A stretch of 64,000 bases of DNA from Thermoplasmata archaeon (GCA_027306505.1 DAHUZP010000017.1:47244-111243), one strand, 5' to 3'; shown: positions 15,236 to 40,591, counted from the stretch's first letter. Notes: generated from the letters alone by a model not told the origin. Numbers and translations are program-made.

Positions 15236-15487
15236 CGCCGACCCCCGCCCGTCCTCACGGGACGAGTGCCCACCGAGAGGTCCGAGAAGAAGGTTCCGGC
15301 GACGAGGATGGGCGACGGGATGACCAGGGAAAGTGCCTCGCATAGCGGCGTCGAGGGCCGAAGGTGGGGTCGGGCGGAACGGTCGGAGGAGGCGGCCAGA
15401 GGGCGCCCCAGACCCGTACCGGGGAGGGCTTCTAGGGGTGCCTCAGCGCCCTCCGGAGCTACCCCCGCCCCTCAGAAGAGGTCGAAG

Positions 15488-15496
15488 CCTTAATCT
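15488..15496 (+). promoter_or_regulatory. TATA-like box (CTTAATCT) about 28 nt upstream of the TPR gene ATG
   Basis: AT-rich hexamer in a GC-rich context at archaeal leaderless spacing. Confidence 0.4.
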
Positions 15497-15521
15497 CGTA
15501 CCGTGGAAGTCCTGGGACAAG

Positions 15522-20223: not shown

Positions 20224-20814
20224 GTGTCGAACCGAAGTGGAGCGAGCATGAGCGAAGCCAAGGCGGAGGCCCAGGCAGCGGAGACCGGGGCGAAGCTCAG
20301 TGGCATAGCGATCGCCGGGGTCCTCATCCTGATCGTGGTCCTGGTCGGGATCGCGATCTACGTCTCCTTCCCCGTCACGAACAACCACTTCACGGCCCTG
20401 GTCGCGATCGGCGTCCTCGGGCTCGTGGTCTCGGTCCTCGCGGTCCTGGTCGCTCCAGGGGCGAGGGACCCCGCGATCCCCCGTGCCGCCTCTGCCGGGT
20501 CCTTCTGGTTCGGCGTCGCGGTCCTCCTTGGCGCGGGCCTGGTCGCCCCGGATGGGGCGTTCGGCGGCGCCGCCTGCTCGGGCAGTGGCGTCGGGGCCTG
20601 CGGAATCACCTTCGGCTCGGTCCGGATCGTCTATCTCATCATCGTGCTCTTCCTCGTCGTCGCGGGTCTCCTCTACATGCGCTGGCAGCTTGGAGGTCGT
20701 GCTCGCGACGTCCGGCGGGAAGCTTCCCGCGACACGTGGCGCAAGAAGACCGGGGTGGGCGCGGGCTCCCCCGGGACCCCTTCCCCGAACGACCCGCGCA
20801 TGAACCCTCCATAG
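20224..20814 (+). CDS. Small integral membrane protein (4 predicted TM helices)
   Basis: Hydrophobic stretches IAIAGVLILIVVLVGIAIYV, ALVAIGVLGLVVSVLAVLV, FWFGVAVLLGAGLV, IVYLIIVLFLVVAGLLY. GTG start 18-25 nt after CCATTAAG. Confidence 0.55.
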   Translation: MSNRSGASMSEAKAEAQAAETGAKLSGIAIAGVLILIVVLVGIAIYVSFPVTNNHFTALVAIGVLGLVVSVLAVLVAPGARDPAIPRAASAGSFWFGVAVLLGAGLVAPDGAFGGAACSGSGVGACGITFGSVRIVYLIIVLFLVVAGLLYMRWQLGGRARDVRREASRDTWRKKTGVGAGSPGTPSPNDPRMNPP

Positions 20815-20840
20815 AGATCCCAGTCCGAAGGTGTGCATCG

Positions 20841-21656
20841 ATGGCGATGAGCAATCCCTCAACCGCATCCGCCGCGACCGGTCCCAAGTTCTGCGCCCAG
20901 TGCGGCGGTCCCCTGGCCCCAGGTAGCAGGTTCTGCCCCGGCTGCGGTGCTCCCACGGCCGCCGCCCCCTCCGCCGCGACCGCGCCGGCCGCTGCCGCTT
21001 CCGCTCCCGCTAGCGCTCCTCCGCCCCCTCCGCCCCCCACACCCCCCTCGGGGCCCTCGCCCACCGCTGCCCCCTCGGGGCCCAATCCCTACGGCGCCCC
21101 CCCGGTGCCTCCGTCCTCCCCTCCGGGGAACGACATTCGCAACCGCGTCGACCAGGACCGAGGGTTCCTCAAGAAGCTCCAGCTCATGATCCCCGGGTTC
21201 CGGGGCTACCGTCAGGCGGAGGACATCCGCGCCGCGGATTCTCTGCTCCGGATCCAGGTCGCGGACCGGTTGGTGACCGCGATGACGCAGGTCGACACCC
21301 TGCGCAGCCAGATGACCCGGGACGGGGTCATGGCGGGGCTGGTCGCCTTGGGCGGGCTCCGCAGCGAGATGCAGCGGCTGGACGGGCAGATCCGTCACGC
21401 CGAAGGCGGCTACAGCGGGATCTCCTCCACGCTCCGGGTCACCCCGGAGAGCCTCGACAAGCTCTACGAGCGGGACTGGACCTTCGTCGCGAGCGCGGAC
21501 CAGCTCCTCTCGACCATGGGCAGCCTGTCCCAGGCGGTCGAGTCGAAGAACGACGCTCAGATCAACAGCACGTGCGACACCCTCCGAGCGAACCTGAAGG
21601 CGGTGGAGACCTCCTTCAGCCAGCGGATGATGTCCGTGGAGGGGGTCCTCCAGTAG
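20841..21656 (+). CDS. Zinc-ribbon protein with Pro-rich linker and C-terminal helical domain
   Basis: N-terminal CAQCGG...CPGCGAP zinc ribbon, a ~60-aa A/P linker, then a ~170-aa predicted alpha-helical domain. No TM segment. Confidence 0.6.
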   Translation: MAMSNPSTASAATGPKFCAQCGGPLAPGSRFCPGCGAPTAAAPSAATAPAAAASAPASAPPPPPPPTPPSGPSPTAAPSGPNPYGAPPVPPSSPPGNDIRNRVDQDRGFLKKLQLMIPGFRGYRQAEDIRAADSLLRIQVADRLVTAMTQVDTLRSQMTRDGVMAGLVALGGLRSEMQRLDGQIRHAEGGYSGISSTLRVTPESLDKLYERDWTFVASADQLLSTMGSLSQAVESKNDAQINSTCDTLRANLKAVETSFSQRMMSVEGVLQ

Positions 21657-21755
21657 GACCTCCGAGGCGGGAGAAGGTCGTCGCAGGTCTAGCCATCGAA
21701 AAGACAGGTAGTTCGGAAGGTCCACTTCGCATCGAAAGGAGGAGAAAGAGCGACC

Positions 21756-22955
21756 ATGTTCAACCGCAGCGCCCCCCCGCCCGCGACGGGCGGCAGCCTC
21801 TTCGGGTCGACCACGATCATCTGGGAGGACTCGTTCAAAGGCCCCAACGTGATGTGGCGGGTCCCCCGCAACATCCGTCTCAACGACAACGTGGTGGTCC
21901 GCGAGGACGAGTACGCGGTGTTCTTCCGCGACGGTAAGGTCCTCGCCTACATCGACCGTCCCGACCGTTACGCGCTCACCTCGCTCAACGCCCCGGTCGT
22001 CGGGAGGCTCGTGCAGGCCCTCTCGGGCGTGCAGCAGCAGGCGGAGGTCTACTATCTCCAGCGCCGCTTCTTCGACGGCAAGTTCGGTTCCAAGGAGCCC
22101 TACACCTTCCGCGACAAGGACTTCGGTCTGGTCAACCTGCGGGTCTTCGGCGACTTCCGCTGGCGCGTCTCCCACCCGGACAACTTCATCACCCAGTTCG
22201 TCGGGACGTTCGGGAGCGAGAGCTCCGGGGACATCGACGACCGCACCCGGGACCAGATGGTGCTCCTGATCTACGCCGCCCTCGGGCAGGCGAAGGAGAA
22301 GGGGATTGGCGTCGCCGACCTCGCGGCGAACCTGCAGACCATCGAGCAGATGGTGCTGGGGAAGGCCCCGGACTACTTCGACGCCTACGGGCTCGAGATC
22401 AACCGCATCCAGGGGCTCTCGATCAGCGTCCCCGACGAGGTCCAGAAGGCGATCGACACCCGCAGCACCATGGGCGTGCTGGGCGTGAACTACATGCAGT
22501 ACCAGGCCGGCCAGGCCATGACCACCGCCGCCGCCAATCCCGGATCCGCAGGTACCCTCATGGGGGCCGGGGTGGGCATGGGGGCCGGCATGGGCATGGG
22601 CTACGGGATGGCCGGTGCGATGGGTCCGGCCTACGCGGGCATGGGCTCGGGCGGAGGCCCCGGAGGTCCCGCGACGCCGTGCCCGAAGTGCGGCTCGCTC
22701 ATCCCCGGAGGCACCCGGTTCTGCCCGTCGTGCGGGCTCAACCTCGCGGCCCCACCGCCCCAGGCGCCCCCCCAGGTCGCCGCGGGGCCGATCTGCCCGA
22801 AGTGCGGACAGCCCGCGGGCTCGGGGAAGTTCTGCATGAACTGCGGGGCCCCCAACGTCCCGCCGGCACCGGCCGCCCCCGCGGTCTGTCCCAAGTGCGG
22901 TCAGCCCGCCGGGAACGGAAAGTTCTGCATGAACTGCGGGGCCCCTCGGGGCTGA
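21756..22955 (+). CDS. SPFH/band-7-like protein with three C-terminal zinc ribbons (COG4260/YdjI-like)
   Basis: N-terminal ~250 aa resemble the SPFH variant of the 'virion core protein' family. G/M-rich linker. Then CPKCGSLIPGGTRFCPSCG plus 2x CPKCGQPAG.GKFCMNCGAP. Confidence 0.7.
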   Translation: MFNRSAPPPATGGSLFGSTTIIWEDSFKGPNVMWRVPRNIRLNDNVVVREDEYAVFFRDGKVLAYIDRPDRYALTSLNAPVVGRLVQALSGVQQQAEVYYLQRRFFDGKFGSKEPYTFRDKDFGLVNLRVFGDFRWRVSHPDNFITQFVGTFGSESSGDIDDRTRDQMVLLIYAALGQAKEKGIGVADLAANLQTIEQMVLGKAPDYFDAYGLEINRIQGLSISVPDEVQKAIDTRSTMGVLGVNYMQYQAGQAMTTAAANPGSAGTLMGAGVGMGAGMGMGYGMAGAMGPAYAGMGSGGGPGGPATPCPKCGSLIPGGTRFCPSCGLNLAAPPPQAPPQVAAGPICPKCGQPAGSGKFCMNCGAPNVPPAPAAPAVCPKCGQPAGNGKFCMNCGAPRG

Positions 22956-23002
22956 GCATACGCTCCAGCGGGTCCGTGGTCGGAACGGGGTGAACGCGCG
23001 AG

Positions 23003-24025
23003 ATGTTCTGCAACGCTTGCGGGGCGCCGAACCCGGACGGTTCGGCCTTCTGTGACCGGTGCGGTCGTCCCCTCGCGGCCTCCGGGGGGGTCGCCCCCGG
23101 GGGCGGCGCTCCCATGGCGGCGCCTCCTCCCCCGCCGCCGGCGGCCTCCGGCGCGAACGCCTTCGACATGAAGGACCTCAAGTGCAAGTCCTGCGGCGCT
23201 CCGCTGCACCCCTCCTCGGGTGACGCGGTCGTGGTGTGCGAGTACTGCGGCTCGACCATCGCGCTCTCCGGGGCCGGCTGGAAGGCGATCCAGAACCACT
23301 CGATGCTCGTCCCCCAGGTCATCGACCAGGACGGAGCCCTCGCGGCCTGCAAGCGCTGGATGGACACCGGCTTCCTCCACCACAAGGACTTCGAGACGGC
23401 GAAGCTGCTCGAGGCGAAGGTCCAGGTGGTCCCCTACTGGATCGTCCCCGCGAGCGCGGTGACCCACTACGTCTACGAGGACGCGGGGGTGGAGGCCGCC
23501 GAGATCGGCGGCAGCATCGCCGCGGCGGCGCTCATCGGCGGGGCCATGGGCGGACGCGGTGGCGGCGGGATGATGGTCCCCGGGATGATGTTGGGCATGG
23601 GGATGTCCGGAGGGGGGAACATGGCGAAGCGAGCGGGCGAGCTCGCCGGGGACTTCCAGTTCCCGATCATCGCGGTCAAGGGGCTCGGGAACTACCAGCC
23701 CAAGGAGTACCAGTTCGACCTCACCGCCCGGCTCCCCTACGACAAGCGCAAGCTGCCGGGGGGGCTCCCGGTCCTCAACGGCGACGTGAGCGAGGACGAC
23801 GCCAAGTTCCAGGCGAAGAACATGGTCGTCGCGCTCCAGGCCCAGAAGGCCCACGCCCAGCACCGGCTCATCGAGAACCTGAGCACCGAGGTCAACGTCT
23901 CGGACGGGGAGCTCCTGCACGCCCCGGTCTGGTACATGAGCTTCCAGCTCAAGAACGGCAAGCAGGAGATGCTCACCGTCGACGCGCACCGCAACGCGGT
24001 GATGAACGCCCAAAAGCCGGCCTAG
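23003..24025 (+). CDS. Double zinc-ribbon protein with C-terminal globular domain
   Basis: CNACGAP...CDRCGRP and CKSCGAP...CEYCGST ribbons, a G/M-rich tract, and a ~200-aa C-terminal domain. Confidence 0.65.
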   Translation: MFCNACGAPNPDGSAFCDRCGRPLAASGGVAPGGGAPMAAPPPPPPAASGANAFDMKDLKCKSCGAPLHPSSGDAVVVCEYCGSTIALSGAGWKAIQNHSMLVPQVIDQDGALAACKRWMDTGFLHHKDFETAKLLEAKVQVVPYWIVPASAVTHYVYEDAGVEAAEIGGSIAAAALIGGAMGGRGGGGMMVPGMMLGMGMSGGGNMAKRAGELAGDFQFPIIAVKGLGNYQPKEYQFDLTARLPYDKRKLPGGLPVLNGDVSEDDAKFQAKNMVVALQAQKAHAQHRLIENLSTEVNVSDGELLHAPVWYMSFQLKNGKQEMLTVDAHRNAVMNAQKPA

Positions 24026-24535: not shown

Positions 24536-25990
24536 TCACCCGGCCGCGAGGGTCCGCCCTTCGCGGGCGGCGATCTCCTGCTGGTAAAAGAGTCGAGCGA
24601 GGGCCTCTTCGTCCTTGCCGACGGGGAGGCTCGCTCCGTCCTTCTTCTCATGTTTGAAGTATCCCACCAGGGCGCCGGCGGCGGCGAGCTTGACCGCCCT
24701 GCTCTTGAGCCGGGGGGAGAACTTGGGGCTCGCGGTCTTCGCGAGGGCCTTCTCGGAGACCTCGCGGAGCGTCGAGTAGAGGCTCGGCTGCAGCGCGACC
24801 CCCTTCATGTGCCACCGCCGGGCAAGGGGGTGCTGGGTCTGGATCGCATAGACGAGGGCGAGATGGTCCTGCACCTTCCGGGCGAGGTGGAAGTCGATCT
24901 CGCCGAGCTCGAGGCGCTCCGCGCTCTGCTCCACCGCCCGGAACCGCTCGCGCGTCATGAGGTGGAAGCGCAGCAGCATCCGGTCCTCGAGCGCAGCGAA
25001 GTTGGGGTCCCCGATCGTCGACTCCCAGGCGTTCCCCAGGACCCGGACGTTGTAGTTGACGGTGAAGTAGGAACGGAAGGTGTAGGGCCCCACCGTGCCG
25101 TAGGTCGTTTCCCACTTGACCTCCCGCTGCTCCATGACGAGCTTGAGCGGCTCGACCATCCCTTTGTACTTGAACCAGTCGTTGAACTCGGGGACGATGA
25201 AGTTGAACGTCCGTCCCCGATAGAAGGAGCCCACGCGAAGGAACTGTGCCGGGGTGATGCCCCCGCAGTATCGGTTGCGGCCGGGGAGCCCGTGGGACGG
25301 GACGCCGCTCTTGGGATTGCCACGGACCAGGTCGTCGATGGCGAAGGTCTTCCCGGTCCCGGGCGGGCCGAAGAGCGCGAGATGGAAGCCGGTGGTCCCC
25401 GTGGTCCTTCCCCCAGGGGCGACCAGGGGCACGTCCGCGAGCGCGTACTGCTGGAGCAGGGCGAGCGCGGGATCGAGCCCGAGCTCCTCCCCGAAGAGCT
25501 CCCGGCTGTAGCGAAGGAGCGCGGCGAGGTCGAAGGTCCGAGCGAACTCGAGGGTCTCCTCGAGCCGCTCCTGGAGGACCTCCCGCAGGTGCCGGAAGAA
25601 GACCGCGTCCATCTCCCGGATCTCGAGCGACTCGTCCGGAGGAGGTTGGAGACCCGTCGTGGAGGGAGTGCTGAGGCGCAGCACGCTCTCGCGCAGGAGG
25701 GCGAGGAGGTCGGGGAGGTGCGGGGCGACGAACACCTTGTCGCCCCGGGGGGCGAAGCTCTCGTCGAGGAGCCCCCGGCGGCGTAGCCGGGAGAGGAGCC
25801 GGGTCGGGTCCTGGAAGATGCGGGACTTGAGGAGCTCCGCCCGGAGCTCGGAGAGACGGAAGCTCGCCGGGACGCCCGAGGTCGCTCGCGCCTCCTGGCG
25901 CCGCCGGGCCTCCTCGAGCACCTGGAGGGCCGAGCGGGCGACCGGCAGGTCCTCCGGGTCGATGTCCAAGGTCCCGGAAGGCGCGGCCAT
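24536..25990 (-). CDS. P-loop NTPase of unknown family (possible Hjc-associated ATPase)
   Basis: Walker A LALFGPPGTGKT near residue 195; hydrophobic-D/E Walker B candidates downstream. 484 aa. Divergent from the Hjc-like gene. Confidence 0.7.
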   Translation of the reverse strand: MAAPSGTLDIDPEDLPVARSALQVLEEARRRQEARATSGVPASFRLSELRAELLKSRIFQDPTRLLSRLRRRGLLDESFAPRGDKVFVAPHLPDLLALLRESVLRLSTPSTTGLQPPPDESLEIREMDAVFFRHLREVLQERLEETLEFARTFDLAALLRYSRELFGEELGLDPALALLQQYALADVPLVAPGGRTTGTTGFHLALFGPPGTGKTFAIDDLVRGNPKSGVPSHGLPGRNRYCGGITPAQFLRVGSFYRGRTFNFIVPEFNDWFKYKGMVEPLKLVMEQREVKWETTYGTVGPYTFRSYFTVNYNVRVLGNAWESTIGDPNFAALEDRMLLRFHLMTRERFRAVEQSAERLELGEIDFHLARKVQDHLALVYAIQTQHPLARRWHMKGVALQPSLYSTLREVSEKALAKTASPKFSPRLKSRAVKLAAAGALVGYFKHEKKDGASLPVGKDEEALARLFYQQEIAAREGRTLAAG

Positions 25991-26020: not shown

Positions 26021-26036
26021 ATATGCGTATATCTAG
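26021..26036. promoter_or_regulatory. AT-rich ATATGCGTATATCTA element between the divergent ATPase and Hjc genes
   Basis: The only AT-rich stretch between the divergent starts. TATAT sits 26-30 nt upstream of an in-frame GTG (26059) and 31-45 nt upstream of the ATPase ATG on the other strand. Confidence 0.35.
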
Positions 26037-26610
26037 GCCGGGGGACGTCGCACCGGTCGTGCCGGGTTCGTCCTTCTCGGGCTACGAGCGGGAGCTCAAG
26101 GGCGTGCTTCAAGGGGAGCCCGATGCGCTCCACCGGTACCGGAAGTACGCGCGCACCCCCGAGATGCTCCACCTGCTGGACTCGATCGAGGCCCGGCCCT
26201 TCCTGGTGGTCCGGGCGGCGGGATCGCAGGGGTTCGACCTGGTCGCGTTGCGGGACCGGGTCGTCCTGCCGATCGAGGTCAAGTCCTCGAGCCAGCCGCG
26301 CATCCCCTTCGCCGCGGCGAGCGGCCGGAGCCAGGAGCAGTACCTCTCGCTCCGGGCCCAGACCCGGCGGAGCGGCCTCCTCCTGCTCTACGCCTACCGC
26401 CTGCTCGGCGCAGGGGAGCGCGACCCATGGAGGCTCTTCCTCGCGGAGGCCCCTGTCGAGGACCACAACCGCTACGCGAAGATGATCGCGGGCCAGCTCC
26501 CGACGGTCGGCGCGACGAGCCAGGGCAACCAGGTCCTTCGGTGGGAGGAGGGGAAGCCGTTGCTCGACTTCTTGAACTGGGTGCACTCGGTCCTGCTGGG
26601 CAACGCATGA
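26023..26610 (+). CDS. hjc: Holliday junction resolvase Hjc-like PD-(D/E)xK nuclease
   Basis: ...SGYERELKGVL... (catalytic Glu), ...GFDLVAL... (Asp), ...LPIEVKSS... (E-x-K) match the Hjc fold order. An alternative leaderless GTG start lies at 26059. Confidence 0.6.
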   Translation: MRISRPGDVAPVVPGSSFSGYERELKGVLQGEPDALHRYRKYARTPEMLHLLDSIEARPFLVVRAAGSQGFDLVALRDRVVLPIEVKSSSQPRIPFAAASGRSQEQYLSLRAQTRRSGLLLLYAYRLLGAGERDPWRLFLAEAPVEDHNRYAKMIAGQLPTVGATSQGNQVLRWEEGKPLLDFLNWVHSVLLGNA

Positions 26611-27746: not shown

Positions 27747-28060
27747 TCGCGGTCTGGTCCTGCGGCCCCTGTTCGCTCCTCCTTCTGGAGCGGCACGACC
27801 GTTGCCCCTCCTGCGGAGGGGACCTCCTCGAGGGCTCGAGGGAGGGAGCGGCCACGGTGCTGGCCGCGACCGAGCTCCTGGTGGCCCCGGAGGGCTGGAG
27901 CGCGCCGCACCGGCTCGTCCTCTTCGAACTGGACGGGGGCGGGCGCTCCCTCGCGGTGGCGGAGGACCCCTTGCCGGCACCGGGAGGCCGCGGTCGTGTG
28001 GAACTGGGCCAGGAGGGGCGGTTCCTCTGGAAGAGGGTCCCCTCCGCTCCGTCCCTTTGA
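27743..28060 (+). CDS. DUF35 OB-fold/zinc-ribbon protein (thiolase partner)
   Basis: CGPCS...CPSCGG rubredoxin-like ribbon followed by an OB-like segment. The TTG start overlaps the thiolase stop (TTGA), the canonical archaeal arrangement. Confidence 0.6.
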   Translation: MIAVWSCGPCSLLLLERHDRCPSCGGDLLEGSREGAATVLAATELLVAPEGWSAPHRLVLFELDGGGRSLAVAEDPLPAPGGRGRVELGQEGRFLWKRVPSAPSL

Positions 28061-28442
28061 TCGGGCGGACCCACCGGTACGACGCTCGGCATCTCGCGGT
28101 CGACACCTGTAGCCCGTGCTGATCCCCTCGTAGTCGATCGAAGCCCAGGACTCCCCGGTCAGGCCGGGGTTCCTTCGGAGGGAGTGGGGATCGACCCAGG
28201 GCGCGAAGACCTGATCGGAGAGAGGCTCATTGGCCAAGGTGTGGAACCCCAGGTCGTACTGGAGCTGATCCGCCCCCTGGTGGTCCAGGAGCCTCCGGGT
28301 GCTGGTGCAACCGTGAGGCGCGCAGGCATCCCCCGAACGAACCCAGGCGACCCAATGGTCGTACGCCCAACCCTCGCACCCGTGGGTGACCTGATGGTTC
28401 CAGGGATCCGCGCCCGGGCAGGCCCGCGAGTAGCTCCCTTCG

Positions 28443-28750
28443 GTGAGGACACCGGTCAAGCCCTCCGATCGGAGAGTCTACGTGATCCAAGACCACCTCC
28501 CGGCCCACACCACGCCCTACGTACGAGCGCGGGCGAGGACGGACAAGAGGACTCTGGTGCCCAGTGCCACCCATGCCTCTTGGATGAGTCCCTTGGAGCG
28601 CCACACGGGGGACGCCCAGAAGCTGTCGTTGGAGGGGATGGACTATCGAACCTGGCCCGCGGTCGAGAGCGCGTTCCGGCGAGCCATCACCTATCGGAAC
28701 CGGGAGAGTAAGGGACGTGGGAAGGTGTTCCGGGATATCCAACGCCGCTG
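28443..28750 (+). pseudogene. IS630/Tc1-family transposase C-terminal remnant
   Basis: ...RRVYVIQDHLPAHTT... (DDE region) and ...SWMSPLERHTGDAQKLSLEG... resemble the conserved Y-SP-LNPIE-W segment of IS630 transposases. No intact N-terminal half; the surrounding 1 kb has only overlapping poor ORFs. Confidence 0.45.
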
Positions 28751-29047
28751 GAGATCACACCGACGACCTGCCTGGAAACAGCACCAGGTGCCCCGGCAGG
28801 AGCGGGGGTTGGGGCGCGGAGAGGAGGAAGTTCAACGGGCCGGGCCATCTGCGCGGGAGCGCGGCGGGCAAGTTAGGATCCGGAAGCCACCCCGATCGGC
28901 CGACCGATAGGCGGAGGAGGTCGGGCTGGCCTGGGCCAGTCCGCGGGAGACCTCCCGCGCGCCCCTAGAGCTCGGCCCGGCGGGGCAGGTCGGGGGCCGA
29001 ATGTATCCATCGGCAACGCTATACCTACCTTCCAGGATTGTTCAAGC

Positions 29048-29707
29048 GTGCTCACTACGGACGGAAAGCGGTTTTGTCCATATTGCGGAAGCTCCAATCC
29101 AAGTTACTTTCTATCGTGTGGAACTTGCCGGGCCACCCTTCCTCCACCCCCGCCCCCGTCCTCCCTCCCAGCCCCCCCGCCGCCACCTCCAGGTCCCTCG
29201 CCAAGCTCGGGCTCCGCACCGAGCACTGCCTTCGCCCTCGTCCCTCCGCTCCCCCCACCCCCGCTCGCGAGCTCCGAGGGCGCGGTCGCTTGGTACCTCG
29301 GTCGGCCCTTGCGCCAGGCACGGATCGTGGCGGCCGTCTGGGGGCTCATCGGACTGGCACCGCTCTTCCTCGCGCTCTCCTTCTTGATCTCTCCCCTGCT
29401 CTCCTGTCCGACGCTCGGAGGGGCATGCACCGCCATGTTGGCCTTCCCGGGGTACTATGCCGGCTGGATCGCGCTGTTGGTCTACGCGACCCTCTGGGTC
29501 CTTCTCAGCGCGGCGACCTTCCTGGAGCTGCGGTACTGGATCGTTTGGGTGGAGCACCGGCACTTCTCCTTCGTGCGGCAGCGCCTGCTCGCCTGGGCCG
29601 TCTTCTCCGTCCTCTTTTCGACCGTCCTCGGGGTCTTCCTGGCCGCGGCCTACTTGCGACTTCAGAACGCGACCCGCTACGCCAATTTGGATAGGATCGG
29701 ATCATAA
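29048..29707 (+). CDS. Zinc-ribbon membrane protein
   Basis: N-terminal CPYCGSS...CGTC ribbon, poly-Pro linker, and 4 TM segments. Confidence 0.55.
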   Translation: MLTTDGKRFCPYCGSSNPSYFLSCGTCRATLPPPPPPSSLPAPPPPPPGPSPSSGSAPSTAFALVPPLPPPPLASSEGAVAWYLGRPLRQARIVAAVWGLIGLAPLFLALSFLISPLLSCPTLGGACTAMLAFPGYYAGWIALLVYATLWVLLSAATFLELRYWIVWVEHRHFSFVRQRLLAWAVFSVLFSTVLGVFLAAAYLRLQNATRYANLDRIGS

Positions 29708-29721
29708 GGGGAGGGGACGAC

Positions 29722-30456
29722 TTGCCCACGACCTACTGCACGAATTGTGGAGCGGTCAACCCGCTCGACGCGGAGGAGTGTGTCCAGTGTCACGAGCCCA
29801 TCGAGACCTCCCTGAGGTCGTCCAGGGAACCCTCCGCCCCCGAGGACACTAGCACAACGCCTGGAAGCTCCTCGGCAGGCCTTCCTGCCGGTGCCCTCCC
29901 CATGTTGGCTCCGCCCCCCGCGCTCCCTCCGCCTCCCCCTCCGGTTCCGCCTCCCCCTCCTCCATCGACGACGGTCCCGCTGAACATCCTCGGAACTCCC
30001 CCCGATTACCATGGGCTCGGGAACCCCGCCCCTCCCCCCATCTATCTGCAGCGACCCCCGGGCGCCTTGCGTCGAGCCGCCGCCTTGGCGGCCATCTTCT
30101 TCATCGTCGGGACCACGCTCGTCCTAGTGGCCATAGGCCCTCTCGACCACGTGCAGAGCACATTCTTCGTCCAGTGCGGCGCGGGGGCCCCGGCGGCCAC
30201 CACGAACACGTACCCCGCCGGGATACCCGTGGACCTCAGCTGGGCCGCCGCATCGCCTGCCGGAGCGCTCGGGGTCCTCCACGTCTATCCATCCTCGACG
30301 GGCACGTGGAACGACGCGTACACCGGGAACGGAGCAGACGGGAGCGGGCAGTTCTCCTCCAACGGTGGTGCCTTCGTGTACGCCTGTTCGATGTCCGTCT
30401 ACCCGTACAACGGCTCGATAGCGGTCACGACCAGCTACTGGGGCCCGTGGCTATGA
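29722..30456 (+). CDS. Zinc-ribbon membrane protein with extracytoplasmic C-terminal domain
   Basis: CTNCGAV...CVQCHEP ribbon, poly-Pro linker, one TM, then a ~110-aa domain homologous to the C-terminus of the 30597 protein (shared ...LHVY..., ...G.SG..QF.SNGG....CS... pattern). Confidence 0.6.
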   Translation: MPTTYCTNCGAVNPLDAEECVQCHEPIETSLRSSREPSAPEDTSTTPGSSSAGLPAGALPMLAPPPALPPPPPPVPPPPPPSTTVPLNILGTPPDYHGLGNPAPPPIYLQRPPGALRRAAALAAIFFIVGTTLVLVAIGPLDHVQSTFFVQCGAGAPAATTNTYPAGIPVDLSWAAASPAGALGVLHVYPSSTGTWNDAYTGNGADGSGQFSSNGGAFVYACSMSVYPYNGSIAVTTSYWGPWL

Positions 30457-30596
30457 TCCTCGGAGAAGGAGGGCTCCTCCCAGGCGCCTTTCTGGCGACC
30501 ACGAACCACCGGACCCACGAGACGTCTCCCCCCGTCTTTCTCGACCTTCCATCGAGACCGCAGGGTAGGATGATCTGACCTCGAGGGTCCATCGAG

Positions 30597-33404
30597 ATGG
30601 GAGACACGGAAGTCGCGGGGCAGGGGGGCGATCCCTCCGGGGAGCGGCAGAAGGCGCGACGGCCCTCGGCAGAAGCGTCGCGCAACGCAGGGATGGCGGA
30701 GAGTGCCAACGGGAGGGAGCGCCCCTCGAGGTCTTCCGAGTCCTCCGAGTCCTCCGGCGCCTTCCTGGTCGTGCTGCTCCTCGCCCTGGCGGTCCTCGCC
30801 GGGCTGCTCGACCTCCTGACGTTCCCCTCGAGCCTGCTCGGGCCCACCGAGGTCCTCCTCATCGCGGCCGTAGCCCTCGTGGTCCTTGTCCTCGTACTGT
30901 TCCGCAGCTCCTACCTGGTCCAGCCCTTCGAGGTGGCCTACGCCTTGAGGGGGACCGGTCCCGGCGCGCGGCGGCTGGACCCGGGATGGAGCCTGGTGAG
31001 CCCCTTCTCCAAGGTCTACCGGGTGGACCGGCGCACCCAGGTCTTGGAGGTCGAGACCAAGTTGGGGATCACCAAGGACAAGGTGCCGGTCCGCGTCAGG
31101 GCCTCCCTGCGCTTCAAGGTGGACCGGGGGGCTTTCGCGGCCCTCGGCGTCCCGGACTACAGGGAGGCCACCGTGCGCGCCACCGAGGGCGCATTGCTGC
31201 TTCTCCTAGGGACCAAGGACCTGGCGGAGATCGAGGCGGAACGCCCGGCCCTCAACAGCGCCCTCGCGGAACGAGTATCGAAGGACGCGGCCGGATGGGG
31301 CGTACGGGTCTCGGCGGTCGAGCTGCTCGAGGTCGACCCCGGTCCCTCCGTGCTCCAGGCGATGAGCGTGGAGGCGGCGGCCCTGCGCCAGCACCGTGCC
31401 GAGCTGCTGCGGGTGGAGGACGAGCGCCAGAACCGGCTCCTCCAGGCCCTCGAGGTGGAGGAGACCGCGGCCCGGCAGCGAAGGGCGGAGATCCTCCGGG
31501 CGGATGGTCAGAGGCGCTCCCATCTCCTCCTGTCGGAGGGCGAGATGCGATCGAGGCTCCTCCAGGCCGAGGGGGAGCGGCTCGCCGGCCTCTTGGAAGC
31601 GATTGGGCACGCCCAGAGGCTCCAGCTGCGCGCTGCGTCGGCGGACAGCCCCTCGTCGGAGATCTACCGTCTCCTGGGACCGGACCCGGAGAACACCATG
31701 GCCCTGCGTCAGGCGAACCTCACTCTGCTTCCGAGGAGGGTCTCGATGCTGCACGAGGAGTTCTCCAGGCCTCTCGTGCCGTTGGAGGAGCCGTTCCTGT
31801 TCGACACCACCTCGGGGGAGTACCCTGACCTGTCCGAGCCCACCGGGGAGGAGGCGGCCCCGGTCCCAGGAGAGGGCACGGCGCTGGGCGACCTTCTCCC
31901 GAGCCCCTCCCCCACCATGGAGGGGGCCGCGACCCCTGCCTCCGGGCTCGCCGCCGCCCCCGCCGCCAACGCCGCCCCCGCGGTCGCGGGCCTTGCCCCG
32001 GGCGCCTCGATTTCGAGCAAAGTGCTGACCACTGATGGGGTGACCGTCAACTACTACCTCGGCGGGGCCGGAGGCCCTGGAGAAGGCGAGCCACCCGTCC
32101 CGTCGAAGAGCCCTCCGCCGAACCTTCCCCCGATCATCATCCCCGGTGGGTTCTCCGGACAGTCGAACACGAAGATCATCTCGACGGACAAGGTCACCCT
32201 CAACTACGGCATGGGTGGCAAGGGCCCGGGCGGGGAGCCCGAGGAAGCGCACCCGGGTCCCCAGCGGGCGTGCGTGCGTTGCGGCGTCCTCAACCCTGCG
32301 AACTACCGCTTCTGCGTGCACTGCGGGGCCCCGCCGCCCCCTGACGTGGTCCACGAGCCGGTGGGGGTGCCCATGCCCCTACCTCCGCCCCCGGTCTGGA
32401 TCCTCGCCCGTCCCCCGACGGCGAGCCCCCTGGACTGGGAGAAGCTCTCCCCTTCGCGCCAGCGACGTTTGCGTGACGTGGTGGGCCATCTCCACCAAGC
32501 CTCTGCGATGGCGCTCGTCTGGACGGCCCTCGGGTTCATTCCCCTCACCTTCTCGGTCATCGGTCTCCTTTCCCCGATGGGTGGCTGCGGGAGCATCCTC
32601 GGCCTTCTGGGCTGCGCCACCGCCGGTACCGCAGGGTACCTGGAACAGTGGGTCCTCCTCCTCGCCTACTCCCTAGGTTGGATCACGGTCAACGCCGCCA
32701 TCTTCGTGCGGACCCCGAGCTGGATCTCGAACACGGAGGCCCTCTACCTTCCGTTCGTGAAGGAACAGGTGACGGTCTGGGGCGTCCTCTCCTTCCTCTT
32801 CGGGCTCGTCGCGTCGGCCTTCCTCCTCAGGGTCCGAATGGACCTCACCCCGCTCATCTCGAGCTGCCCGCACTGCTACACGACCAATCCCCCCACGCAG
32901 CAATACTGCAGGAAGTGCGGGCGGCAGGTCTTCCACGTGGCCCCCGCGCGCTCCGCCCGTCCGGACCTTCCCCCCTACCCGGCCTCGGGGCGGGCCGGGG
33001 GAGAGCGGCGCCCATGGGGGCGAACGTCGAGAGTGGCCGCGGGCCTCCTCATCGGGCTGGTGGTCCTCCTCGGGGTCTTGGCCGTGGTCCCGTTGAACAA
33101 CCAGGGCCAGACGGTGAGCCTCCTCTGCGGAGGGGCCACGGCGGCCACGGGAGCGGTCTATCTGCCCTCCCAGGCGCAGGTCCAGCTCCACTGGACCGTG
33201 GGCGGACAGAATGGGACGGTCCACCTCCATGTCTACGATGGCCCGGTCCAGAGCGCAGACCTGGTCTACTCGGGCACGGGCTCGAGCGGCACCGTGCAGT
33301 TCGGGTCGAACGGGGGGACCTACCTCTTGACCTGTTCCACGATCTCCGGGGCTTGGACCGACCCCGTGAACGTCTCGACCGAATATCCCACGCCCATCCT
33401 CTGA
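30597..33404 (+). CDS. Large SPFH/band-7 (stomatin/HflK-like) membrane protein with two zinc ribbons and a C-terminal ectodomain
   Basis: N-terminal TM, canonical SPFH core (...RVRASLRFKVDR...WGVRVSAVELLEVDP...), coiled-coil, two ~25-aa repeats (K.L.TD.VT.NY), CVRCG...CVHCG and CPHCY...CRKCG ribbons, 4 TM segments, and a terminal domain paralogous to 29722. Confidence 0.75.
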   Translation: MGDTEVAGQGGDPSGERQKARRPSAEASRNAGMAESANGRERPSRSSESSESSGAFLVVLLLALAVLAGLLDLLTFPSSLLGPTEVLLIAAVALVVLVLVLFRSSYLVQPFEVAYALRGTGPGARRLDPGWSLVSPFSKVYRVDRRTQVLEVETKLGITKDKVPVRVRASLRFKVDRGAFAALGVPDYREATVRATEGALLLLLGTKDLAEIEAERPALNSALAERVSKDAAGWGVRVSAVELLEVDPGPSVLQAMSVEAAALRQHRAELLRVEDERQNRLLQALEVEETAARQRRAEILRADGQRRSHLLLSEGEMRSRLLQAEGERLAGLLEAIGHAQRLQLRAASADSPSSEIYRLLGPDPENTMALRQANLTLLPRRVSMLHEEFSRPLVPLEEPFLFDTTSGEYPDLSEPTGEEAAPVPGEGTALGDLLPSPSPTMEGAATPASGLAAAPAANAAPAVAGLAPGASISSKVLTTDGVTVNYYLGGAGGPGEGEPPVPSKSPPPNLPPIIIPGGFSGQSNTKIISTDKVTLNYGMGGKGPGGEPEEAHPGPQRACVRCGVLNPANYRFCVHCGAPPPPDVVHEPVGVPMPLPPPPVWILARPPTASPLDWEKLSPSRQRRLRDVVGHLHQASAMALVWTALGFIPLTFSVIGLLSPMGGCGSILGLLGCATAGTAGYLEQWVLLLAYSLGWITVNAAIFVRTPSWISNTEALYLPFVKEQVTVWGVLSFLFGLVASAFLLRVRMDLTPLISSCPHCYTTNPPTQQYCRKCGRQVFHVAPARSARPDLPPYPASGRAGGERRPWGRTSRVAAGLLIGLVVLLGVLAVVPLNNQGQTVSLLCGGATAATGAVYLPSQAQVQLHWTVGGQNGTVHLHVYDGPVQSADLVYSGTGSSGTVQFGSNGGTYLLTCSTISGAWTDPVNVSTEYPTPIL

Positions 33405-36925: not shown

Positions 36926-39900
36926 CTACGGCGGGGACGGAGGTCCCGAGCGGCCGTCGTCATCGGCCCCCACCGGACCCGAAGGGGCCCAGAGGGAGCT
37001 CGCCTGGGAGGAAGGGCCAGGGCGGGCGGAGCTGGAGGTCGTGCTCGAGGCGCCGGCGCCCGGGGACGATGGCTCCTCGGGCGCCCGCGCGACGGGGCCT
37101 TTGGTGTCCGCGTGGCGGCGGGCCCGCCGGTAGCGCAGGCGGTGGTGGACCCAGAGGAGCGCGCCCAGGAGCAAGAGGACGCTCGACAGCGCGTAGATCG
37201 GGGAGACGAGGCCTGCCGAGCTCATGTGGGACGGGTCGAGGAGGTAGGAGCCGAGGCCATAGCCTCCCAGCGCCCCGACGAGCGCACCTGCCCCAAGGAA
37301 GCTCGCGGAGAGCGTCGGTTCCCAGCGGAGCGGTCGCACCGCCTCGCGCTGGGCGGGGGTGAACGGGGTGCGGTGCTTCCATCCGATCCTGAGGAGCTCG
37401 ATGCCCGCGATCGCGAGCAGCAGCAGGAGCCCTGCGATGAACGCGAAGAACTCGACGCCTAGCGTGAGCGCGAGCGAGCCGCCGAGGACCTCCGCGATGA
37501 CCGGTCCTTGGAGCGACGGGCTCGAGGAGCTCACGACCGTGCCGTTCACGATGCTGCGTCCGTAGAACCGGACCGCCCCGGACTCGCTGGTGAGCAGCCC
37601 CCGCTGCCAGATCGTCCCCGTGATGTTCGCCCCGCCCGGGAAGGTCGCGGTGTCGTTGGGGAGCACGATGGTCCCCGAGAGGCCAAGGCCCCCCACGGAC
37701 ATGCCGCCGTTCACTTCCATGAAGCCGGCGAGCGTCGCACCTTTCCCGAGGGTCACATACCCCACTGTGGAGCTCGCTCCCCAGACGCTTGCGCTCCCCG
37801 AGGCGACGGTATGCCCGACGATCCGGCTCGAGCCGTCGACGTAGTAGCCGGTCGAGTTCGCGACGATCGTGCCGTGCGAGACCGTGAAGCCGGTGAGCGC
37901 GATGCTCCCCCGGAGCAGGAACTGCCCCCAGTCGAGCGTGTAGTTCCCCGCGACGTCGAGCCCCGGAAGGTCCGTGCGCCCTTGCGTGTAGACCGGTCCG
38001 TTGAAGTCCGCTGTCCCCGAGAGTTGGACCGTGCCCCGGGAGTAGACCATCCCGCTCGCGGCGAGCGCGCCTGAGATCGTGACCTGGGAGGAGGTGAGCG
38101 TCGCCGAGCCCTGGATGGTGACGTTCCCGGAGGTGTTCACGTTCCCCAGCACGTGGGCCGCGTTCGCGAGGTTGATGTCGCCCACGAGCGAGAGGGTCGA
38201 GCCCGGCGAGGTCGACAGGGTCGAGTCCCCCGTCACCACGACGGTGCCGGTCATGTAGAGGTCACCCACGATGGAGGAGGTACCGACCTCGGAAAAGATC
38301 CCCTGGTCCACCGTGAGGATGCCCGTGAGCGTGACGTTGCCCGCGACACCGCTCGTGCCGCTCGCGTTCACCGAGCCCCCCGACGAGGAGAGGCCGAAGG
38401 TCCCCAGGAGGCTCATGCCGGGGAACTGGGCGAGCCCGCTCGAGGTGACCGCTCCGGTGAAGATGGTGACGCCGAGGACGGAGACGTTACCGCGCGCTTC
38501 GACGACCCCGACGACCTTGAGCCCCGTGGGGAAGGAGACGGTGGTGCCGTTGAAGCTGGAGGTCCCGTTCGTGAAGGAGGCGCCCTGGACGAACACGCTG
38601 CCCTGCACCCGGGAGGTCCAGCTCGGTCCGGTGGGCCCGTTGACGACCCCCATGAGGACCGTCGCATTGAGGTTGAGCGAGCCTCCGGGGGCGGTCAGGA
38701 GCTCGGCCGCCCCCTGGACGGTGATGCTCCGGTTCACGTCGACCGTCCCGTTCAGCCACGACGAGCCGGTGACCGAGTAGGTGGAAGCGTTGACCCAGGT
38801 CCACCCGCGAGCGGTGGAGGTGCCTTGGAGCAGGGTGCTGCCGACGCCCACGAAGGAGCCGTCGTGGAGCAGGAACGTGCCGTCCATGAACGCGTGCGGC
38901 AACGAGATGTCTCCGGAGCTCGAGACGTTCCCGAGGAACGCGGTGGTCCCATCGGTCCCCACGCCGCCGGAGGCGGTCATGGAGCCGTTCAGCGAGAGGT
39001 TCCCCTCGATGTGGATGAGCGTAGCGTTCTGGGTCAGCGTACCTTCGATCGCGATGTCCCCCGAGGCGTTGGTGCTACCGTCGATCGTGACGTCGGAGTC
39101 GATCGTGGTGTACCCGCTCGTGACCACGCCGTGGCCAGGGGCGCTCACGATGTGGATGTCCGGTCCCAGCTGGAGCTTGTGGTTGAACACCTGCTCCCCC
39201 GCGCTGTCCATCTCCCCGACGATGGTGAGCCCGCCATCGTTGTAGAACGTGCCGCCGTTCGAGGCCGACGCCTCGGCGCTGAAGGTCCCTTCGACCGTGA
39301 CCGCGGCCTCCAGGTCCTCGCCGTGGGAGACGGTCACCCGTCCGAGGGTCGCCACCAGGGCGGGGTAGCTCGCGCCGGGGGAGACGATGAGCTGGGGCGA
39401 GCCCAGGTCCGGATCCATGGAGAGGTTGACGCCGGCGCTGGGCGGGATCGCGATCGTGAGCCGGGTGTCCGGCATGGTCGCGGTCATCCCCTGCCCGCTC
39501 GTGGTGGTCGAGCCGAGGATGCTGAAATGGGCCCCCGCCGGCCATGTGATCGAGGTCACCGGCACAGCGATACACCCCAAGCCCACGATGCAGAACGCGG
39601 AGACGTACACCTGTCCCACGGCCACATTGATGGTGGTCGGGACCCCCAGGATGGACGCCTGGATCGAGATCGGTCCCGAGGAGTTCGCGTAGTTCAGGAT
39701 CTGGGAGGCGTTGCCGACGTTGATGTTGGCCCCACCGCCGTAGCTGTAGAACCCGCCTGCCTGGCGGGCCTGGATGGTGATGTTGACCCCGGTCGTGGTC
39801 ATGAGGAAGGTCTGGCCGTTCGCGGGGTCGCCCAACTGGATGTTCCCCTGCAGGATGTTGAGCGCGGTCGTGTTGAGCGGCGAGGGGGAGACCCAAAGGT

Positions 39901-40591
39901 TCGAGCCCGGGTGGGAGGTGAAGACGGCGGCGGGACTCCCGGGGAGGGAGGCGATGTGCATCGAGCCCACCACGACGGTGGGGCCATAGTCCGCCCATCC
40001 GGCGGTCTCGGTCAGGTTCGACGTGACCGCGGACCCGATGATGTGGACGGTACCGTCGAGATAGGTGGTGCCGGCCGATAGCGTGCCGTTGAGGTGGACG
40101 CTCCCGTTGATCGCCGTGGACGGGGGAGAGGTCGAACCATGGATCCATGGGACCTTGGACGTGGGAGCGCTCACGGTCCCGGCGAGGGTGGTCCTGACCG
40201 GGGCCGGAGCGCTGCCTACGGTGGGCAGAGCCCCGGGAGGCGGCCCTCCCGTCCTCATCGAGGGTGGGAGGGTGGTCGAGGAGGCTACGGTGCCGGACGA
40301 GGTCGCGAGAGCGCCCGTCGCGCCGTGCGAGGTCAGCAGCAGAGCGCTCGCGCTGCTCAAGAGCAGAAGGGCGACCACGACCGACCGGATCTGTGCTCCT
40401 GACAAGTCCAAGGCCCGTCGCCGCTCTCGCGGTCTTCGACTCGATTCTCCGCTCCGTAATGAGGGTTGGCTCGGGCGACAACGCCCCCTCCACCTCGAAG
40501 CCGGACGGTCCGAGGGGGGGGCGTGACGAGAATCGTAATGTCTGCTTTTCGACCGACAGGTATATACTGTTTGTCTGACAAGTGTCAGCAC
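36926..40591 (-). CDS. Giant (about 1220 aa) beta-helix/adhesin-like surface protein with C-terminal TM segments
   Basis: Signal-like VVVALLLLSSASALLL. Long G/T/S/N-rich repetitive body (GT..VT.G, TISG... repeats). Two C-terminal hydrophobic helices. No in-frame ATG near the N-terminus, so a GTG/TTG start is likely. Confidence 0.65.
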   Translation of the reverse strand: MLTLVRQTVYTCRSKSRHYDSRHAPPSDRPASRWRGRCRPSQPSLRSGESSRRPRERRRALDLSGAQIRSVVVALLLLSSASALLLTSHGATGALATSSGTVASSTTLPPSMRTGGPPPGALPTVGSAPAPVRTTLAGTVSAPTSKVPWIHGSTSPPSTAINGSVHLNGTLSAGTTYLDGTVHIIGSAVTSNLTETAGWADYGPTVVVGSMHIASLPGSPAAVFTSHPGSNLWVSPSPLNTTALNILQGNIQLGDPANGQTFLMTTTGVNITIQARQAGGFYSYGGGANINVGNASQILNYANSSGPISIQASILGVPTTINVAVGQVYVSAFCIVGLGCIAVPVTSITWPAGAHFSILGSTTTSGQGMTATMPDTRLTIAIPPSAGVNLSMDPDLGSPQLIVSPGASYPALVATLGRVTVSHGEDLEAAVTVEGTFSAEASASNGGTFYNDGGLTIVGEMDSAGEQVFNHKLQLGPDIHIVSAPGHGVVTSGYTTIDSDVTIDGSTNASGDIAIEGTLTQNATLIHIEGNLSLNGSMTASGGVGTDGTTAFLGNVSSSGDISLPHAFMDGTFLLHDGSFVGVGSTLLQGTSTARGWTWVNASTYSVTGSSWLNGTVDVNRSITVQGAAELLTAPGGSLNLNATVLMGVVNGPTGPSWTSRVQGSVFVQGASFTNGTSSFNGTTVSFPTGLKVVGVVEARGNVSVLGVTIFTGAVTSSGLAQFPGMSLLGTFGLSSSGGSVNASGTSGVAGNVTLTGILTVDQGIFSEVGTSSIVGDLYMTGTVVVTGDSTLSTSPGSTLSLVGDINLANAAHVLGNVNTSGNVTIQGSATLTSSQVTISGALAASGMVYSRGTVQLSGTADFNGPVYTQGRTDLPGLDVAGNYTLDWGQFLLRGSIALTGFTVSHGTIVANSTGYYVDGSSRIVGHTVASGSASVWGASSTVGYVTLGKGATLAGFMEVNGGMSVGGLGLSGTIVLPNDTATFPGGANITGTIWQRGLLTSESGAVRFYGRSIVNGTVVSSSSPSLQGPVIAEVLGGSLALTLGVEFFAFIAGLLLLLAIAGIELLRIGWKHRTPFTPAQREAVRPLRWEPTLSASFLGAGALVGALGGYGLGSYLLDPSHMSSAGLVSPIYALSSVLLLLGALLWVHHRLRYRRARRHADTKGPVARAPEEPSSPGAGASSTTSSSARPGPSSQASSLWAPSGPVGADDDGRSGPPSPP

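Follow-up and report, generated by a model that had tools for sequence, protein, structure and literature searches.

What, other than a protease, might an archaeal stomatin-type scaffold hold in the membrane? The question is raised by three consecutive genes, here called A, B and C, on the plus strand of a 64,000-nucleotide (nt) stretch of DNA from an uncultured Thermoplasmata archaeon (GCA_027306505.1, DAHUZP010000017.1:47244-111243; the whole stretch is referred to as the window, and positions are counted from its first letter). A and B encode small membrane proteins headed by a zinc ribbon (ZnR), and C encodes a large protein in which a stomatin-type SPFH domain is joined to A-like and B-like modules. 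Apart from the proteases FtsH and NfeD, the membrane proteins organised by prokaryotic SPFH/stomatin scaffolds are, to our knowledge, largely unknown; likewise, we know of no role assigned to the ZnR-headed membrane proteins that are very common in archaea. A stomatin fused to copies of two adjacent membrane-protein genes supplies a concrete, testable hypothesis about such clients, and ties some of these ZnR-headed proteins to a scaffold.

A preliminary description made from the sequence had outlined this three-gene locus. An open reading frame (ORF) scan finds the three plus-strand ORFs at the positions given there, and the domain inventory is as described. New here are the covalent fusion, the A-type module and two unannotated families, namely a polytopic module with three clear transmembrane (TM) helices and a GOLD-like ectodomain. 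The account developed below, held tentatively and at somewhat less than an even chance, is that C together with A and B forms a scaffolded surface-binding or envelope-sensing platform.

C carries fused copies of A and B

Composition-adjusted BLASTP aligns B 146-239 with C 838-930 at 35% identity (E 6e-11). This alignment takes in the LHVY and QF.SNGG...CS segments from which the ectodomains of the two proteins had been proposed to be paralogous, and the significance of the pairwise match bears that proposal out. The relationship extends to the other gene, since A 7-205 aligns with C 556-750 at 29% identity (E 1e-17, BLASTP). Laid end to end, A and B are collinear with C 553-935, ribbon against ribbon, linker against linker, helix against helix and ectodomain against ectodomain, and the junction between the stop of A and the start of B maps between ...RVRMDLTPLISS and CPHC... 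in C. From the two alignments and this collinearity, the C-terminal ~380 residues are identified by sequence comparison as a collinear fusion of one A copy and one B copy, in the same order as the upstream gene pair. The preliminary description had linked a duplicated ZnR-TM-ectodomain architecture to a neighbouring SPFH scaffold; the link is stronger than that, being a covalent fusion of both upstream gene types.

C as a whole consists of a stomatin/QmcA-type SPFH protein of ~400 residues, a disordered tether of ~150 residues and the ~380 residues of A and B copies (Table 1). Residues 91-340 align with Escherichia coli QmcA (8z5g) at E 1.4e-21, including the AEGE-type coiled coil, and C also matches the stomatins of Pyrococcus horikoshii (E 5e-19) and human (E ~1e-13); the PDB entries of these QmcA and stomatin matches hold 16 to 26 chains. 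Residues 1-52 are hydrophilic. The second hydrophobic stretch that follows them aligns with the TM helix of QmcA, and a hydrophobic N-terminal anchor thus stands directly before the SPFH domain, as in the stomatin-QmcA type. QmcA and P. horikoshii PH1511 (whose partner is the NfeD protein PH1510) resemble C in this anchor, in the PF01145 domain and in the AEGE-type hendecad coiled coil, but C differs from stomatins and QmcA in that its N-terminal part has one more TM stretch and its C-terminus is extended by 535 residues.

The tether contains two repeats of ~30 residues each, with the motifs KVLTTDGVTVNY..GG and KIISTDKVTLNY..GG. Residues 473-502 and 523-552 align with a local score of 73, against 29.6 +/- 5.7 for shuffled sequences, and none of 5000 shuffles scored as high. 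The tandem repeats that had been reported for C are therefore present at the protein level, as the 11-residue periodicity of the coiled coil and these two motifs, but not at the DNA level, where Tandem Repeats Finder found none and only Pro-codon low complexity was seen. The remaining content attributed to the large protein (an SPFH domain, two zinc ribbons, multiple TM helices and an ectodomain) is borne out by Pfam and hydropathy. Both ribbons of C exceed the Pfam threshold (Zn_Ribbon_1, PF13240, 38.2 against 25 bits; DUF7577, PF24463, 32.3 against 28 bits), and the AlphaFold2 (AF2) model places helices of the A-like module at residues 619-658, 667-675, 681-714 and 718-755.

Table 1. Features of the A/B/C locus (positions in the window; L005 is the locus of the sister lineage, C' its copy of C)
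Feature	Position	Strand	Description
Upstream block of gene A	28974-29047	+	85% identity over 87 nt with sister locus L005
Gene A	29048-29707	+	219 aa; GTG start; ZnR, Pro-rich linker, polytopic membrane module
A zinc ribbon	29075-29128	+	residues 10-27, CPYCGSSNPSYFLSCGTC; motif scan
A membrane module	29303-29665	+	residues 86-206; three clear TM helices (hydropathy)
A-B spacer	29708-29721	+	14 nt; GGAGG at 29710-29714, 7 nt 5' of the TTG of B
Gene B	29722-30456	+	244 aa; TTG start; ZnR, Pro-rich linker, one TM helix, C-terminal beta-sandwich domain
B zinc ribbon	29737-29790	+	residues 6-23, CTNCGAVNPLDAEECVQC
B TM helix	30067-30141	+	residues ~116-140; RPPGALRR just before; dG -2.7
B ectodomain	30136-30453	+	residues 139-244; predicted GOLD-like beta-sandwich
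Gene C	30597-33404	+	935 aa; stomatin-type SPFH protein with A-like and B-like modules
C N-terminal membrane hairpin	30753-30902	+	residues ~53-74 and 84-102; dG -2.9 and -2.6 (hydropathy)
C SPFH/Band 7 domain	30948-31424	+	residues 118-276; PF01145 72.3 bits, cut-off 23.6
C coiled coil	31380-31631	+	residues ~262-345; 11-residue periodicity; aligns to the AEGE-type repeats of QmcA
C flexible tether	31797-32252	+	residues 401-552; 68% P/G/A/S/T/E composition
Short repeat, copy 1	32013-32102	+	C 473-502, SSKVLTTDGVTVNYYLGGAGGPGEGEPPVP; conserved in C'
Short repeat, copy 2	32163-32252	+	C 523-552, NTKIISTDKVTLNYGMGGKGPGGEPEEAHP; conserved in C'
C zinc ribbon 1 (ZnR1)	32271-32324	+	residues 559-576; counterpart of the head of A
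C A-like membrane module	32394-32846	+	residues 600-750; A-type family model (A4) 173.9 bits
C zinc ribbon 2 (ZnR2)	32865-32918	+	residues 757-774; counterpart of the head of B
C last TM helix	33021-33089	+	residues ~809-831; dG -3.2; AF2 helix 808-830; counterpart of the B TM helix
C ectodomain	33090-33401	+	residues 832-935; paralogue of B ectodomain

Ribbons, membrane parts and sidedness

The CxxC...CxxC motif is present in all four ribbons of A, B and C and is conserved in the sister lineage. At Pfam thresholds the ribbon of A has no match, and that of B stays below the Zn_Ribbon_1 cut-off (20.5 bits, E 4e-4). Archaeal membrane proteins headed by DUF7577 or Zn_Ribbon_1 resemble A and B in their N-terminal CxxCG..NP....CxxC ribbon, Pro-rich linker and TM helix or helices; the DUF7577 model (a domain of unknown function), however, spans a ribbon of 27 amino acids only, and the membrane module of A and the ectodomain of B lie outside it. 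Beyond Band_7 and the zinc ribbons, Pfam recognises nothing in B and C at E <= 0.01, and its sole match in A is a sub-threshold one to 7TM_GPCR_Srh (17.6 against 26.3 bits). No catalytic domain was found in A, B or C with Pfam, NCBIfam and PADLOC, nor a kinase or other output domain.

Exactly one TM helix lies between the beta domain and the nearest zinc ribbon, in B as in C, and this places ribbon and beta domain on opposite sides of the membrane. Hydropathy thus agrees with the opposite-side arrangement of the preliminary description, for which 'receptor-like' is a label of predicted topology. The beta domain probably faces the outside and the ribbon the inside, because the beta domains of B and C have no Lys or Arg in ~105 residues and a conserved Cys pair, because the wider ectodomain family is likewise K/R-poor, has an even Cys count (21 of 26 members) and usually carries one or two N-x-S/T sequons, and because the N-flanks of the TM helices are Arg-rich in both B and C with no signal peptide. 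The two N-terminal hydrophobic stretches of C would return the chain to the side of its N-terminus, and the stomatin part is likely to be cytoplasmic, as in QmcA.

Fold of the ectodomain

The predicted structure of the ectodomain is confident and all-beta. The best structural matches of both the B and C domains are GOLD domains, at 9-16% identity; other beta-sandwiches (PPC, collagen-binding, the Tk-SP jelly roll) score nearly as well, a viral fold search in BFVD returned generic beta-sandwich matches only, and the Pfam GOLD model matches none of A, B and C. The domain is accordingly described from its model as a 'GOLD-like beta-sandwich', which is a tentative assignment by fold and not one of GOLD family membership. 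Proteins of the p24/TMED type differ in layout, since they run from signal peptide through GOLD and coiled coil to TM helix and short tail, whereas B and the end of C have the opposite order of ZnR, linker, TM helix and beta-sandwich. The identity of 9-16% and the missing Pfam GOLD match also separate the ectodomains from the p24/TMED GOLD domain.

This fold brings to mind a known archaeal association. In Meth_adaptin ESCRT loci, an SPFH-coiled-coil-ZnR protein occurs together with a GOLD protein attached to a TM helix, and 'strong contextual links' between ESCRT, GOLD and SPFH have been described (Makarova et al., 2024; PMC10936438). The set of building blocks corresponds to that of C (SPFH, coiled coil, ZnR and a TM-attached beta-sandwich, which in C is GOLD-like by predicted fold), and C has SPFH, coiled coil and ZnR in that order. 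In the Meth_adaptin loci, however, they are separate proteins beside Vps4, ESCRT-III and adaptin-appendage genes, whereas C is one polypeptide with a polytopic module in addition. If the A/B/C locus were a compact relative of these sets, it would act in membrane remodelling or vesicle cargo sorting, the GOLD-like domains binding cargo outside and the ribbons recruiting factors inside. Such a role is improbable, as no Vps4, Snf7/ESCRT-III, PspA or adaptin-like domain is on record within ~10 kb (precomputed Pfam list), as the Pfam GOLD model finds no match, and as the orientation is unlike that of p24, with the beta domain C-terminal after an N-in TM helix.

Conservation and selection

The locus is preserved in a sister lineage (L005, Logan SRR22746116), in the order Hjc, thiolase, DUF35, A', B', C', followed by a minus-strand gene with PKD domains. 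The orthologues measure 222 (A'), 244 (B') and 929 (C') amino acids and are 77% (A), 70% (B) and 78% (C) identical to their counterparts. Every zinc-ribbon Cys of A, B and C is kept, indels between C and C' comprise whole codons only, and C 751-780, which holds ZnR2, is the most conserved segment measured (93% identity). The ratio of nonsynonymous to synonymous substitution (dN/dS, Nei-Gojobori) between the two lineages is 0.33 for A, 0.37 for B and 0.38 for C, and in none of the modules does it reach 1 (0.27 for the ribbon head of A, 0.15 for that of B and 0.21 for the coiled-coil region of C). The corresponding values are 0.12 for Hjc and 0.11 for thiolase, both housekeeping neighbours, and 0.39 for the adjacent PKD surface protein.

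Public annotation of the metagenome-assembled genome (MAG) starts A and B at internal codons, giving proteins of 126 and 123 instead of 219 and 244 amino acids. The internal starts drop the ribbon and the Pro-rich linker (window 29048-29326 and 29722-30084), and the same happens in the relatives P0004-P0008 and P0013. In Logan assembly L003, B is called at its full 244 amino acids. Conservation with L005 argues for the long forms of both genes, and the GGAGG before the start of B supports the long B ORF and, by extension, points to co-transcription of A and B. Because gene callers trim the ribbon-bearing N-termini of A, B and several family members, protein databases largely hide this architecture in the high-GC archaea concerned.

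These data bear on whether the genes might be an artefact, with C mis-assembled or merged by a frameshift, or with A and B as spurious long ORFs of a 70% GC genome. High-GC genomes do give many long spurious ORFs, and public gene calls differ as to where A and B begin. Nevertheless, C is identical in four independent assemblies (GCA_027315705.1, contig DAHVCF010000091.1, and three assemblies from the SRA) and intact in a lineage at 78% identity; dN/dS stays below 1 throughout; the GC content of third codon positions (GC3) picks the correct frame, being 0.88 in C and 0.88-0.92 in neighbouring housekeeping genes, while in overlapping ORFs, alternative or antisense, GC3 falls below GC1; a GGAGG precedes the start of B; and the ribbon-headed architecture recurs in unrelated contigs. 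An artefact is thus extremely improbable.

At 0.78 for A and 0.80 for B, GC3 is lower than in C and in the housekeeping neighbours, which may reflect a weaker codon bias or a different history of the free copies. Only 28974-29047, of the whole spacer 5' of A, is conserved with L005. This block contains a TATA-like TATAC at 29020-29024, ~26 nt 5' of the GTG start, and is a possible archaeal promoter or the sign of a leaderless transcript. The ~0.9 kb 5' of A (window 28060-28970) has no conserved counterpart at the sister locus, whose spacer measures only ~410 nt. By eye, the ORF 28443-28910 within this stretch recalls the C-terminal portion of an IS630-type transposase; Pfam gives no match, and the ORF is a possible insertion remnant.

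Distribution of the two partner families

A profile query made of C 585-935, the membrane part of A and the ectodomain of B was searched against 1.84 billion representative proteins (E <= 1e-3) and matched 32 of them. Neither of the families to which the hits belong has a Pfam or NCBIfam model. The ectodomain family has ~25 representatives (clusters at 50% identity) of 118-212 amino acids, many of them with the shared order of N-terminal ribbon, Pro-rich linker, one TM helix and a domain of ~100 residues, so that the arrangement noted in the preliminary description is both genuine and recurrent. Its motifs (alignment A3) are VP after the TM helix, [FY]PxGxxVxxxW, YxxxGxSGSxxFxxxGGxYxF and a C-terminal YxxP[IL]L; they are present in B and C, which score 89 and 94 bits with the family hidden Markov model (HMM). 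The A-type membrane family (P0004-6, P0016, P0018 and P0019) has the invariant pattern W4, W20, G24, P27, P38, W62, Y68, W72, W86, W105 over three TM helices (alignment A4), and its HMM gives 185 bits for A and 174 for C. Separate, narrower searches found two proteins with the ectodomain alone and seven with an ectodomain profile.

Besides C' (P0003), no profile-search hit carries an SPFH domain, and no other carries the extension of C (tether, two ZnRs, polytopic module, TM helix and beta-sandwich), the SPFH part itself not having been used as query. The 90% cluster of C has one member, and scans of the GTDB species genomes and of JGI metagenome contigs brought up no relative either of C or of the A-type module.

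Two other contexts resemble parts of the locus. On a distant, lower-GC archaeal contig (L009/L010), three consecutive genes encode DUF7577-headed membrane proteins; the second is A-like (239 amino acids) and the third B-like (216 amino acids), 29 nt apart, and no SPFH domain was detected within +/-8 kb. The string (L009 6474-9730, and L010) opens with a 374-residue protein that has ribbons at both ends and a weak tetraspanin-like match, and ends with a 145-residue P/Q-rich protein with two TM helices. Its first two ribbon heads hardly differ (KFCPRCGTNNDPSYSYCAAC and KFCPRCGTNNDSSYNFCMSC), which suggests a recent duplication or a common binding partner. On L008, a 553-residue ORF combines a weak match to Band_7 with a long coiled coil and two ribbons, and an A-like gene without a ribbon of its own lies 160 nt 3' of it, after which the contig ends. 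The possibility that these are one ORF split by a single stop was rejected, as two stops and the 160-nt spacer separate them. BLAST gives no similarity between this SPFH protein and either C or the SPFH protein of a first module at 20-24 kb of the window (see below). The A-type module is thus linked with different SPFH proteins, and its association with an SPFH-coiled-coil-ZnR protein appears to have arisen, or to have been kept, with more than one of them.

Several distant relatives stand in other surroundings. An ectodomain relative on L011 adjoins a thermopsin gene; others lie beside integrase and resolvase genes (L007) or HEPN_AbiV (L017). On L006 (793-5888, a contig of 74% GC), the distant ectodomain member P0033 (124 amino acids) stands directly 5' of DO-GTPase and GAP1-N2 genes. 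These belong to a GTPase-centric conflict system, a kind that typically includes variable TM and extracellular beta-sandwich components (PMC7159879). Distant A-like genes (P0016 and P0018; L012-L014 8001-8426, L018-L020 6001-6498) have a conserved position immediately 5' of Toprim and MoxR/Mg-chelatase-like AAA genes. Those of L018-20 also lie beside a cluster of HMG-CoA synthase-like, thiolase and DUF35 genes, which echoes the order thiolase, DUF35, A of the window. One relative of the distant A-like family carries the label Candidatus Thermoplasmatota.

Such neighbours invite a reading in terms of conflict or surface variation, by which A, B and C would be fast-evolving envelope proteins that deal with viruses or neighbouring cells (in receptor masking, superinfection exclusion or attachment sensing, for instance), with the SPFH part as their anchor only. 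Consistent with it are the rarity and patchiness of the families, a dN/dS equal to that of the neighbouring PKD surface protein, the mobile-element and defence genes beside ectodomain relatives on L006, L007 and L017, and the lower GC3 of A and B. Yet the locus is syntenic between two lineages among housekeeping genes (Hjc, thiolase), no effector domain is present, and PADLOC-DB 2.0 gives no meaningful match, the 13.8 bits for C being at chance level. On balance, this explanation is doubtful.

A proposed scaffolded binding platform

SPFH cages work with membrane proteases, HflK/C with FtsH and stomatin with NfeD. The HflK/C assembly has been resolved as a 24-mer (PMC10936438). The preliminary description had suggested a signalling or quality-control system. 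By analogy with these cages, the A/B/C locus could serve client confinement or quality control: a stomatin cage would enclose the A- and B-type modules as HflK/C does with FtsH, limiting their diffusion, activity or turnover, with the protease encoded elsewhere and the fusion guaranteeing client capture. The stomatin/QmcA type of the SPFH part fits this idea, as do the known pairing of such cages with proteases and the way in which fusion and gene string tie the scaffold to specific membrane proteins. It is nonetheless an unlikely explanation. No NfeD, FtsH or other protease gene is listed within ~10 kb on either side (precomputed Pfam list), so that the adjacent NfeD gene of the stomatin-NfeD operon is not seen here; the HflK equivalog TIGR01933 gives C only 19.9 bits against a cut-off of 159.4 (NCBIfam); and there is no sign of an activity of A or B that would have to be held in check.

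From the fusion, the paralogy, the selection on every module, the rarity and the fold class, we infer instead that C would serve as the scaffold of a platform, a reading favoured by the absence of a catalytic, protease or signalling output domain from the three proteins. As in stomatins and QmcA, the SPFH and coiled-coil part of C would form a ring or dome of many subunits at the cytoplasmic membrane face. Each subunit would bring one tethered A-type and one B-type module into or around the footprint of the ring, the tether being, in principle, long enough to return to the membrane. The free A and B proteins, encoded in the same operon-like string, might be recruited by the membrane and ectodomain contacts that also keep the fused copies in place. 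The outcome would be a membrane patch that displays a cluster of outward-facing, non-enzymatic beta-sandwich binding domains, with cytoplasmic ribbons beside the scaffold, and its role would be the binding of surface ligands or cargo, or envelope sensing, rather than that of an enzyme or protease regulator. The recurrence of an A-like/B-like pair on L009 and the A-like gene adjoining a different SPFH gene on L008 are in line with this.

Four observations weigh against the platform. First, the A-type module has, by hydropathy and AF2, three clear helices and a further short one in an uncharged segment, which in A is the Gly/Cys-rich stretch between TM1 and TM2. This mid-segment has a dG of +3.5 in C and +5.6 in A, and in the relatives on L009 and L008 it plainly does not form a TM helix. 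With an odd number of crossings in the module, ZnR1 and ZnR2 would face different sides of the membrane, whereas crossings between the two must be even if both ribbons of C are cytoplasmic; the strongly positive loop around ZnR2 (12 Lys/Arg in C 744-812) and the conservation of the fusion argue for an even number. Second, the overall AF2 pTM is only 0.49, so the helix packing is unreliable. Third, the evolutionary rate of A, B and C is about threefold that of the neighbouring housekeeping genes (dN/dS 0.33-0.38 against 0.11-0.12). Fourth, most members of the ectodomain family stand alone with neither an SPFH nor an A-like neighbour (L006, L007, L011, L017), and the SPFH link is thus not general to the family.

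A bolder, Rosetta-stone version of the platform is speculative and improbable. It would take the fusion to name the first dedicated non-protease clients of an archaeal stomatin, with a stomatin ring holding a ring of GOLD-like surface receptors whose ribbons dock on the scaffold. The whole would then be a minimal prokaryotic counterpart of the ESCRT-linked SPFH-GOLD sorting platforms, and A and B together would make a tetraspanin-like unit of four helices, three from A and one from B.

Relation to the first module and neighbouring genes

A second SPFH locus with zinc ribbons lies upstream (20224-24025), and the preliminary description had suggested that A/B/C might be a fused variant of it. 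Sequence comparison does not support this: A, B and C have only generic CxxC...CxxC ribbons in common with the proteins of the first module (E 0.02-0.04), and the SPFH subfamilies differ, that of the first module being YdjI-like (PF13421) without a TM helix and that of C being PF01145 with a membrane hairpin. By these comparisons the two loci are analogous in design and not homologous.

The analogy extends to a bacterial system. Bacillus subtilis YdjI needs YdjG and YdjH for its recruitment to the membrane (PMC8581546), and YdjG carries a zinc ribbon (PMC9239133). The design principle of PspA-YdjGHI, an SPFH protein with small membrane proteins of which one has a ribbon, would match both loci of the window. 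YdjI, however, is a soluble PF13421 protein, unlike C, and it is only at C that the partners are fused to the scaffold.

The SPFH protein of the first module (21756-22955; 399 amino acids, Band_7_1, PF13421, 128.7 bits) is of the YdjI type and has three C-terminal zinc ribbons. Its 90% cluster counts 14 members, 12 of them full-length (394-399 amino acids) and present on many NCBI and ENA contigs, which makes it far more widespread than C. Its flanking genes encode a 306-residue ribbon protein, with a weak match of the helical C-terminal part to NCBIfam LIMLP_15305 (33.7 bits, cut-off 210), a 340-residue double-ribbon protein and a 196-residue membrane protein. A 1580-residue TPR protein ending in a Cys-rich ribbon is encoded 5' of it (15333-20075 region).

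Farther along, a Pfam scan places the Hjc resolvase gene at 26023-26610. Between it and the first module, on the minus strand (24536-25990), lies a gene for a 484-residue protein with a Walker A-like GPPGTGKT, which has no Pfam or NCBIfam match at E <= 0.01 and only a chance-level PADLOC match to MkoA over the P-loop (13.5 bits); it is conserved in L001, L002 and L005. Beyond C, a minus-strand ORF of 1221 residues (36926-40591; called at 1150 residues in the MAG) has no Pfam match at E <= 0.001. The GC content of the window is ~70%, and the bin at 28-30 kb (0.671) is among the lowest of its 2-kb bins, two others standing at 0.663.

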